The notes under the pieces: generated by a model | Told to the model about the DNA's origin: nothing | What the model saw: the letters and a program-made list of their open reading frames with translations, nothing else | The model's database searches: none | Part shown: positions 50,501-53,500 of the stretch, piece by piece | Position numbering within the stretch: the stretch's first letter is position 1 | How the letters are laid out: each line of letters begins with the position of its first letter | DNA from: Raja brachyura | Taxonomy: Eukaryota | Reading direction: 5' to 3' | DNA: 64,000 bases | Assembly (NCBI GenBank): GCA_963514005.1 | Contig: OY740818.1 | Coordinates: 15,314,001 to 15,378,000, forward strand | Made by a program: the position numbers and the translations under genes

Positions 50501-53500
50501 TAAAGCAACCTGACTATTCTTAAGCATAAAGCAAGCCAGATATGCTATCAACACATGGTCCAGATGTGTACACGTTTTCCATTCAAAGATAGCTGTTTCA
50601 AATATTATTAATTGCCCTGGAATGATGAGGTATGAAAAGACTTTATAAAATTCAAGGGTCTTTCAATAGGCATAAGGAATTACAGTGCGATTAAAGGATG
50701 CCGTTTAAATTCAAATTTGCACCTCGTTAATGGATTCCTCTGCTGATGCAATACTCTTAAAATTAAAATTAAGCGTAACTCTGCGAGTAAACTTATTGCG
50801 TATGAGAGGTCATGCTAGCTTCCTCCTCGTCTTTCATCCCAAGTTGAGAAGAATGGAGGCTTACCTTTGGACCAGGGGGGCCCTCAGGCCCAGGTATTCC
50901 TGGCGGCCCAATAACCTGCAAAATGAAGAAATGTCTTTCAGTGTGTACATGAGGCAAACTTTGCAAAAGGTTCATAAAACAGGGGACGGTGCTGTGCATG
51001 TTCTGATTGTGACTTGTGAAATGGATAGTAGTTTGCTGATTGAGTGCAAATCCATTTACATTATGCCATTTGACAGACAAAAAGATTTTGGGGGATTTAT
51101 GCCAAATAAGGGCAAATGGGACCAGCTCAGACGGGGTACCTTGGTCAGCATGGATGAGTCGGACCGAAGGGCTGGTTTCCATGTGGTATGACATTAAACA
51201 CACTAAATCGCATATAGGTCAGCAATACCTATTGCTATCTTAAGTCTAATTCTTAGATTTAATTGTTTCCAAAATCTGATTTTGCAGGATGAAAAATGGT
51301 TTGTGTTTTTTGTTTTTTTTACAATTTGCTTCAAGTTTCATCTGTCCTTTCCTGTGATCTGGATTGCACTGCAAGCTTCAATGGTCATTTTCATAAAGGT
51401 AAATTTGTGAAGAAGATACATTTTCAGGGCTAGTGACTAATAGTAAAGGGTTACACAAAAAGCTGGAGAAACTCAGCGGGTGCAGCAGCATCTAAGGAGC
51501 GAAGGAGATAGGCGACGTTTCGGGTCGAGACCCTTCTTCAGACTAATAGTAAAGTTCTTTCTAAAGAGGTGGAATTGCAAATTGGGTGAATAGTCTCCTT
51601 TTGGATGCCCTCTGGTGCAAACTCTAGGCTACTGTGCCAGGGAACGGGGCAGAAGGAGATGTGATCAAGACAGCTGTGGGAGTCTATGGCTTATGATGGG
51701 CATTGATGGTTAACCTATTTCTGGAGATGCGGTTGAAAAGATTAATGAAAGAAAAACTGCTGATCTATCAAATGATCATTTTTTTCATGTGCATCTAACC
51801 TTGTTATCGATTGTTGGAAATTTGTTGGGTTCCGTGATTTTGGTGAGTGGGAAGAAAATAAGGCACTGAAATAGGTTGTGGTAGTATATTTGATAATCAA
51901 TGGCCATACAAATTGTATTTAAATCATTCATCATCCAGGATCATGGTCAGGACACAGCTGATAAAATGAATATCTTCTCCTTGGCTTTTGTACCTCAACC
52001 CACAGATGGCTAGCAAGTGTGCATTAGCACTAGATGAAGGAGAAAGATACCAACCACTTCCTGGGCAATGGGAAGCCCCTTATTCAAAAATACTTCCTTT
52101 TCACTGGCACAGTCCTTCAATAGAAAATGGAGATGACTCTTCTGATAAATGGAGCCTCCATGGTGACAAATTATGAATGAAGCTGCGAAATAAGGTGAAG
52201 GTTTAAGTGGATAATTTAATTTACGGCACAGTGGCGCAGCTGGTAGAATTATTATTTTTTTTTTAAGAAGAAAGGGTCTGAAGAAGGGTCTCGACCCGAA
52301 ACGTCGCCTATCTCCTTCGCTCCTTAGATGCTGCTGCACCCGCTGAGTTTCTCCAGCCTTTTGTGTACCCCCAGCTGGTAGAGTTGCTGCTTCACAGCTC
52401 CAGAGACCCAGGTTCGATCCTGCCCTCAGCTGCTGCCTGTGTGGTGTTTGCACATTCTCCCTGTGACTGCGTAGGTTTCCTCTGGGTGCTACGGTTGCTT
52501 CCCACATCCCAAAGACGTGCGGGTTGGTAGGTCAATTGGTCCCTGTAAATTGCCCCCAATGTGTAGGGAGTGGATTAAATAAATGGGATAGAAACATAGA
52601 AACATAGAAAATAGGTGCAGGAGTAGGCCATTCGGCCCTTCGAGCCTGCACCGCCATTCAATGTGATCATGGCTGATCATCCAACTCAGTATCCCGTACC
52701 TGCCTTCTCTCCATACCCCCTGATCCCTTTAGCCACAAGTGCCACATCTAACGGCATCTAACGATAACATCTAACGATAACATTGAACTCGTGTGAACGT
52801 GTGATCAATGGTCAGCGTGGACTCGGTGGAGAGAGGCGTGTGTTTCCATCTCTAAAAACTAAACAAAAACTAGAAAAGGATTCTAAATAAGGCACTGGGA
52901 TGAAGAGTGGGAATTAAATAGGGCTAGATGATAAATGGAAGTGGTTAAATGTAATGGAAACTTTAATGGGATGGAGAGGGAATTAATGGGTAGGCACTTC
53001 CTTGGCACCAATATGGTGCTACTCCTCAAGACCACTTTGACCCTATAGTGTTAAGCACCAAAATGAAGTGGGCATCAGCTGCAGATACTCACAGTTGAGC
53101 CTGGAAGTCCAACAGGGCCTGGCAGTCCAGGAGGGCCTTGTAATCCTGGTTCTCCCCTTTCTCCTTTTTCACCTGTGTGCCCATCTAAACCCTAAATACA
53201 TAACACAAAAAGGAAACTACTTCAGGGCATTGAAGGCTAATTTAAAATGCTGTAGTCTAAGTTGGATTGTTCAGAAATTGGATAATATTTCAAAAGTAAA
53301 GTAACATTTGAGTCTTCTGACTCACATTGACAACTAACACAATAGGGTCAATTTAACTGCAGTTAATGCAAGAAGAATTTATCGTACTTCGTAACTTAGC
53401 CAGTCTGGTCAACATGTAAAATCTTTGCAGTTCTTGATTATAAATGAAAACCTTCTGCATATAATTGTCAAAATATTTAACTATGATGAAGATGGGACAG

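Follow-up and report, generated by a model that had tools for sequence, protein, structure and literature searches.

The window analysed here, a 64,000-nucleotide stretch of the genome of the skate Raja brachyura, contains two host genes and a large number of dispersed repeats (Table 1). The 3' part of COL13A1 lies on the minus strand. Two of its exons, at 33855-33784 and 33219-33157 (minus strand), both end in GLDAPCP and are possibly alternative exons, and one exon near 33855-33157 (minus strand) is followed by a splice donor rather than a stop. The neighbouring kinase-like gene is one that we take to encode a cGMP-dependent kinase (PRKG). Fragments of a LINE-type reverse transcriptase are found at 31168-32594 and 35698-36280 (Pfam RVT_1, E 1e-28); the 3' ends of such fragments recur at 42483-42637 and 52595-52752, and their depth in the contigs of sequencing run X1 reaches 18 million, exceeding that of the hammerhead repeat described below. 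The focal copy of that repeat interrupts an element that we presume, from our reading of its A and B boxes, to be a tRNA-like SINE.

Table 1. Features of the window (positions are those of the 64,000-nucleotide stretch).
Feature	Position	Strand	Basis
COL13A1 exons, 3' part	27941..63605	-	exons end in type XIII peptide (PMC8259268)
Kinase-like gene downstream of COL13A1, with coiled-coil start and cyclic-nucleotide-binding stretches	361-11573	-	weak Pfam scores
tRNA-like SINE (presumed), interrupted by focal copy	52225..52572	+	self-match of 52372-52572 to 60156-59946
Focal repeat copy, young subfamily, short form without tail	52274..52371	+	sequence, profile, alignment
Stem I 5' strand GGGT, peculiar to the focal junction (family CAGT)	52274..52277	+	run contigs, copy table
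CUGAAGA box (C3-A9) and extra A	52278..52285	+	consensus, Fig. S3 of PMC4209133
Stem-loop II, GGGU/ACCC, 4-nt loop, G10.1-C11.1	52286..52297	+	copy table, alignment
GAAA box, loopless ACGU palindrome (52301-52304), GUC triplet; predicted cut after 52305	52298..52305	+	
Stem I 3' strand GCCU	52306..52309	+	copy table, folding
Left target-site duplication, 11 bp	52237..52247	+	
Right target-site duplication, 11 bp	52372..52382	+	
AT-rich extra segment, 26 bases, likely inverted tail	52248..52273	-	
Young copy, C3 at 51541, 2-bp stem I, sense to COL13A1	51449..51544	-	
14-bp duplication of the 51541 copy	51541-51554 and 51435-51448		
Young tailed copy, no stem I	56035..56161	+	
14-bp duplication of the 56035 copy	56024-56037 and 56162-56175		
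Older copy, C3 at 9015, GG replacing the CG palindrome, pyrimidine-rich upstream flank	8888..9020	-	
Broken PLE ORF relic, post-RT region to GIY-YIG-like region	62860..63426	-	protein searches

What kind of repeat is this? The focal core at 52274-52309 reads, in order, GGGT, CTGAAGA, A, GGGT-CTCG-ACCC, GAAA, C, GTC and GCCT. This is the outline of a type I hammerhead in which loop III is absent, with both boxes, stem II and the GUC triplet all legible, as the initial annotation had proposed. A profile built from the window copies finds 39 matches, together 5.8% of the window; the reversed window gives none. The exact pattern CTGAAGA-N5-30-GAAAC occurs 10 times, where 0.43 matches are expected, and the density of the repeat is roughly one copy per 2.6 kb. 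Each of the 15 coordinates listed in the initial annotation corresponds to a repeat copy within 1 base, with the low coordinate used for minus-strand copies. The very high copy number that it proposed is likewise supported. As a rough hint, the depth ratio (millions versus 6.5) suggests a genome total of 10^5-10^6 copies, although a depth ratio is no copy number.

The same annotation had more than 20 copies sharing the full motif, and this number is too high. Most of the core is kept in 25 of the 39 matches (24 rows with at least 23 of 36 matching positions, plus the 9015 copy, which has a one-base gap), and 12 of these have every core nucleotide. Half of the 12 also have the CG palindrome, and 4 of those 6 also have a 4-pair stem II; 52278 is alone among these 4 in having a stem I of at least 3 pairs. 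Cervera and De la Pena described minimal hammerheads in the pseudo-LTRs of metazoan Penelope-like elements (PLEs) in 2014 (PMC4209133), and the published descriptor requires a stem II of 3-7 bp with G10.1-C11.1 and a stem I of at least 3 bp, with 2-bp variants accepted when found by hand. We implemented this descriptor (Fig. S7 of PMC4209133) for the window. Two copies pass it in full (52278 and 9015), five pass when stem I is relaxed to 2 bp, and nine combine both boxes with a paired stem II; the corresponding means over 100 shuffles are 0, 0.01 and 0.07. Just two copies satisfy the full descriptor because the family stem I has only 2 bp.

The focal copy is therefore atypical: its 4-bp stem I is a minority form that was supplied by its junction. 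In the X1 contigs, depth is 3.19 million at 52275-79 but only 96 thousand at 52270-74. Loose ends upstream of 52276 terminate in CA, with an agreement of only 0.34 before that position. Hence, the family reads CAGT ahead of the core, and the focal GGGT arose at the insertion junction; slippage from the GGGTCT of stem II, or untemplated addition, may have produced it. In the young subfamily, CAGU faces GCCU, giving a U-G pair, a G-C pair and then a mismatch.

Pairing and variation were compared in an alignment of 24 of the 39 matches, consisting of 23 of the 25 core-bearing copies (23176 and 24542 were left out) and 14855. In stem II, 89.6% of cells are paired, and the first pair is GC in 16/24 copies. 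G-C to A-U double changes occur at two of the four stem II pairs, but they come from few related copies and represent few independent events. Stem I is paired in 51.1% of cells, and its third position is unpaired in 19/23 copies. At the palindrome (15.2-16.2), C is found in 17/23 copies and G in 18/24, making CG the majority; there is no loop III. The initial annotation had described G-to-A loss of the CpG type in the core. Such decay is present, core included, but C-to-T changes are equally common. Transitions number 44/189 at CpG sites versus 87/838 at other C/G sites, and CpGs that touch the core decay as often (22/95) as those elsewhere (22/94), meaning that the core is not spared. In the X1 contigs, whose variant rows start at 52298 and hence lie beyond the first box, the changes G12 to A, C15.2 to T and G16.2 to A account for 9.7%, 7.5% and 8.4% of depth, close to the 5.0% and 13.5% of a non-core CpG. 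The non-CpG core positions are less variable than the rest (11/233 versus 225/1399). This fits selection on master elements, with the reservation that the choice of copies with a recognisable core and the presence of subfamily-diagnostic sites both bias the comparison. Alternatively, it could reflect selection on the dispersed copies, a reading that is subject to the same selection bias and that would count against their being idle.

An Rfam search, which the initial annotation had suggested as a check, found no hammerhead, either at the gathering threshold or even at E 10. PLE-linked comparator hammerheads also score nothing at E 1, so Rfam is insensitive to minimal hammerheads of this kind. 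RNAalifold returned no consensus pair for the 24 copies, and none of the folding z-scores is significant (0.34-0.42 for short copies, -1.4 for the tailed copy). In the tailed copy, at 56079-56142, AGAUGCUG pairs with CAGCAUCU of the tail in the predicted fold, which is possibly a protein-binding structure or one at which reverse transcription starts.

Where do the copies begin and end? All 25 core-bearing copies extend through the predicted cut site, and no profile match begins immediately beyond it, at model position 35; these copies therefore came from uncut RNA. Most copies start 3-5 bases upstream of the core. Among 26 copies, similarity extends to -3 or -5 and then falls to background, with T at -1 in 19, G at -2 in 17, A at -3 in 19, C at -4 in 10 and T at -5 in 17, and with no dominant base from -6. 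This sharp boundary is unexplained by random 5' truncation. The boundary could mark a transcription start, a stall in reverse transcription or, with CAG preceded by pyrimidines, a splice acceptor. The young subfamily runs upstream through CAGT into a longer element in X21 record 25 and in P0087, and the upstream flank in both is pyrimidine-rich, as it is in window copies 14776 and 39861. The combination of this tract with CAG, which resembles a splice acceptor, is retained in all subfamilies. It is a speculative and rather improbable idea that the joined 5' sequence switches the ribozyme: in unspliced RNA, the pyrimidine tract and CAG would leave a 2-pair stem I and an intact RNA as template, while splicing at CAG, or a cap there, would supply pairs and turn cleavage on, with the copies recording that RNA end. 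If so, hundreds of thousands of copies would form a genome-wide record of it. At the other end, the young copies stop at +93, +94 and +127 from C3, and most 3' ends of profile matches are spread across model positions 98-135, accumulating at 127-135. The 3' tail is thus optional, and the short and tailed forms fit the 30-40 bp tail of PLEs.

The repeat has been mobile recently. The three youngest copies have target-site duplications of 14, 11 and 14 bp; no other of the 28 matches examined has one longer than 9 bp, and 2/300 random positions reached 11. The 51541 copy is missing from three related organisms. In organism D, a single contig spans the site with a net loss of 107 bases; to within 1 base, this is the 92 plus one 14-bp copy that an empty site should lack. 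Organisms B and C have about 27 additional bases there. Contigs of all three organisms end at 52247, where the left duplication of the 52278 copy also ends, which suggests an empty site there that no contig bridges. Since the young copies have duplications, one empty site is clean and a SINE has been interrupted, the family must have been active after these species split. Species-specific insertions of this type could serve as phylogenetic markers. At the focal copy, the reverse complement of 52248..52273 matches the end of the 56035 tail over 9 bases and then continues into an A-run. Contig joints between the two hammerhead copies were considered as head-to-head pairs and rejected: the intervening sequence is undefined, and similar counts join an unrelated repeat, which is what contigs ending in repeats would give.

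The initial annotation had linked the repeat to Penelope-like elements. The architecture of the hammerhead, the inverted pairs, the tail and a relic in the window all support that link, but it is circumstantial, with no copy joined to an ORF. When one split match is merged, 18 of 38 matches form 9 divergent pairs within 200 bases, and there are no convergent pairs; the mean under the null is 1.5, and 9 was reached in 0/5000 permutations. An inverted 5'-truncated partner and an optional tail of 30-40 bp are PLE traits (PMC8557442). The relic ORF has 81 matches among 1.84 billion proteins. Four of the six relatives looked up are named shark or ray proteins, one match is an unrelated repeat protein, and two of ten scanned have both RT and GIY-YIG domains; these matches indicate a host among the cartilaginous fishes. 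In the relatives, a cysteine linker precedes the endonuclease, which is more like Neptune (PMC8557442). Pfam found nothing in the relic, and neither the word-indexed protein search nor the ESM Atlas gave anything useful. The profile finds no hammerhead after the relic in the window, and neither the window nor pattern scans of contigs directly linked any repeat copy to a PLE ORF, so membership rests on architecture. As a weak hint, a whale-shark gene model (P0013) has the repeat in antisense adjoining a PLE fragment. Of 14 distant PLE loci scanned with a relaxed descriptor, six have a hammerhead 3' of the ORF and on its strand, representing about three different motifs. Their stems I are G-C-rich and 2-5 bp long, and at loci with an intact ORF end the hammerhead follows the stop at a distance of 184-190 bases. 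Six PLE loci from metagenome contigs (L004:2086, L008:1481, L009:3207, L010:2306, L011:3050 and L012:2631) have a hammerhead variant in which GAAA is preceded by an additional U and the palindromic stem III is longer (AACCGGUU). Scans of metagenome and viral contigs with degenerate patterns gave 0 matches and no host-type copy, and a PLE protein scan of the viral contigs found none. The sole match in a genome contig, L015:3028 (minus strand), is a minimal hammerhead with a 5-bp stem I, but it was rejected as it has no similarity to the family profile. That contig is filed as a bacterial assembly, and its AT-rich flanks look eukaryotic, making contamination likely.

The repeat is likely to be the end piece of a Penelope-like element. 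More specifically, with a probability of roughly 0.7, the repeats of 95-135 bases are 3' end pieces (a pseudo-LTR end plus an optional tail) of a very active PLE that were copied from uncut RNA, with the minimal hammerhead idle in almost every dispersed copy. The PLE protein would nick AT-rich DNA, and reverse transcription would start at either of two internal sites, about 95 or about 130 bases past the core, yielding the short and the tailed forms. On reaching the core, or shortly before, it would halt; an inverted second copy would sometimes be left, and the duplication of 11-14 bp would come from repair. By analogy with other PLEs, the ribozyme of the master element may cleave weakly after GUC, either as a dimer through the ACGU palindrome or with the help of a protein. 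A close parallel is PAc (Poseidon of Anolis carolinensis; Frangieh et al. 2024, PMC11167929), which has internal reverse transcription starts, an uncut RNA template and two 3' ends that are the start sites. Its hammerhead is followed by about 100 nt and an optional tail, and its targets are AT-rich, as here; it needs the PLE protein for cleavage, and no reads ended at the cut. In contrast, the PAc ORF begins at stem II, whereas no link to an ORF was found for the skate repeat. Two further observations speak against parts of the PLE explanation. The sharp 5' boundary argues against plain truncation, and clear duplications of 11-14 bp are not stressed for PLEs in the literature consulted.

Could the dispersed copies cut host transcripts such as the COL13A1 pre-mRNA? 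The initial annotation had implied as much in calling the family ribozyme-bearing, a label that overstates its capability: nearly all copies lack a usable stem I or have core lesions, and most copies are, judging from sequence, likely unable to cut. In its favour, the copy listed at 51514 (C3 at 51541) has an intact core and is indeed sense to COL13A1, the gene being confirmed on the minus strand, and stems I and II form the predicted lowest-energy fold of the 52278 copy when it is trimmed to 40-44 nt. That fold is no better than those of shuffles (z 0.38), however, and in a 165-nt context the predicted probability of stems I and II is at most 0.02. The 52278 copy, the example chosen in the initial annotation, is antisense to COL13A1, and the 2-bp stem I of the 51541 copy is closed by a U-G wobble and has a predicted pairing probability of 0.00. 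For both copies, the active dimer is predicted to lie 12-14 kcal/mol above the best dimer fold, in a model that excludes tertiary contacts and Mg2+. Published minimal hammerhead monomers are uncleaved, and dimers cleave weakly (PMC4209133). Across both host genes there are 11 sense and 12 antisense matches, which gives no sign of sense copies being purged, and there is no sign of an effect of the repeat on COL13A1; 18 of 38 copies, moreover, sit in inverted pairs and would anneal to their partner. Working dispersed ribozymes are thus very improbable. Another suggestion is that the motif, though derived from a hammerhead, has lost cleavage even in the master element and is retained as a promoter, protein-binding or splice signal; this is unlikely, though less so. 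Even the young master has the poorly paired stem I described above, insertion by PAc in vitro is unimpaired by hammerhead mutants (PMC11167929), and Naiad PLEs spread without canonical hammerheads (PMC8557442). Against this, 2-bp stems I have been published for D. virilis, Culex and Oikopleura, albeit with G-C pairs (PMC4209133), and change among the skate subfamilies affects loops and downstream positions, with the core and stem II retained.

Two further alternatives concern the RNA from which the copies were made. Each short copy may represent a short RNA over its full length, or the first 95-135 nt of the element RNA, transcribed from a promoter just before the core, and together the short copies may form a SINE-like non-autonomous PLE derivative. 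This is a tentative but real possibility; it is compatible with the PLE explanation and would refine it. The place where copy similarity stops and the poor agreement of loose ends beyond it fit a transcription start, the TCAGT of the family resembles what we take to be an initiator, and the family ACGT lies 27-30 bases downstream of the A at -3. In Drosophila, Penelope has an internal promoter that lacks a TATA box and includes a downstream element RGACGTGY (PMC2377424), but the D. virilis start is 46 bases before the intron rather than at the ribozyme (PMC2377424). Nor is an extra cap-derived G evident: of 12 copies with AGT, G is found at -4 in 2 and C in 8. A reverse transcription stall at a structure would give an identical boundary, and the boundary is known here from contigs rather than from RNA 5' ends. 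The remaining alternative, a non-LTR retrozyme whose tandem units are processed by the ribozyme into circular RNA, is the least probable of all. Retrozymes of this type are, like the skate repeat, non-coding, hammerhead-bearing and PLE-related (PMC7229834; bioRxiv 10.64898/2026.07.22.740005); tandem ones are reported in one chondrichthyan, the only one sampled (bioRxiv 10.64898/2026.07.22.740005), and some contigs here contain short head-to-tail stutters of the core. However, retrozymes are tandem, mostly with canonical hammerheads, whereas the skate copies have a minimal ribozyme, are solo or inverted with target-site duplications and are not bounded by the cut site, and the window has no tandem arrays, the nearest same-strand neighbours being at least 362 bases apart.

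On the sequence evidence, the skate repeat would work like, and by most testable features appears to be, a minimal hammerhead of metazoan PLEs. It shares with those in PMC4209133 the CUGANGA box with one extra base, G10.1-C11.1, GAAA, an NUH triplet, the loopless palindrome at 15.2/16.2, mostly solo dispersed copies and nearby opposite-strand pairs. It differs in its 2-bp stem I (the descriptor minimum is 3) and its stem II of only 4 bp, and its density is far above the 4,000-9,000 motifs given there for coelacanth and Xenopus. Drosophila virilis Penelope also has a 2-bp stem I with AG just 5' of it, and its intron ends at the 5' edge of stem I (PMC2377424, PMC4209133); unlike in the skate, both of its stem I pairs are G-C, and stem III contains an insertion (PMC4209133). 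The rows of Fig. S3 of PMC4209133 that were examined include no cartilaginous fish, and our literature searches found no paper describing minimal hammerheads of PLE ends in this group. PLE hammerheads cleave weakly and are dispensable for insertion in vitro. A young, high-density family with clean junctions provides a large natural sample of PLE insertion products, and it could be used to map where reverse transcription starts and stops.

Several smaller observations concern individual copies and contigs. At 26006-26232 there is an inverted pair of an older subfamily, with A-U instead of G-C at two stem II pairs (AGAU/AUCU). At 14705-14964, a minus-strand copy that retains about 90 bases of flank upstream has lost stem II and the second box through an internal deletion, and it faces a plus-strand copy truncated within stem II. 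The head-to-tail stutters of the hammerhead core occur with a period of about 30-37 bases in contigs of two organisms (52305-52312 back to 52276) and could supply dimer partners; in the X10 contigs, a junction from C17 back to the start is ambiguous, as letters are common to both sides. The repeat is also found in RNA-labelled runs X16 and X21, in contigs that are silent on transcription, strand and ends. One of these, X16 record 23, is a 1946-base contig of depth 1310 that terminates in a 5'-truncated young copy, and it may represent an abundant transcript that carries the repeat close to one end.
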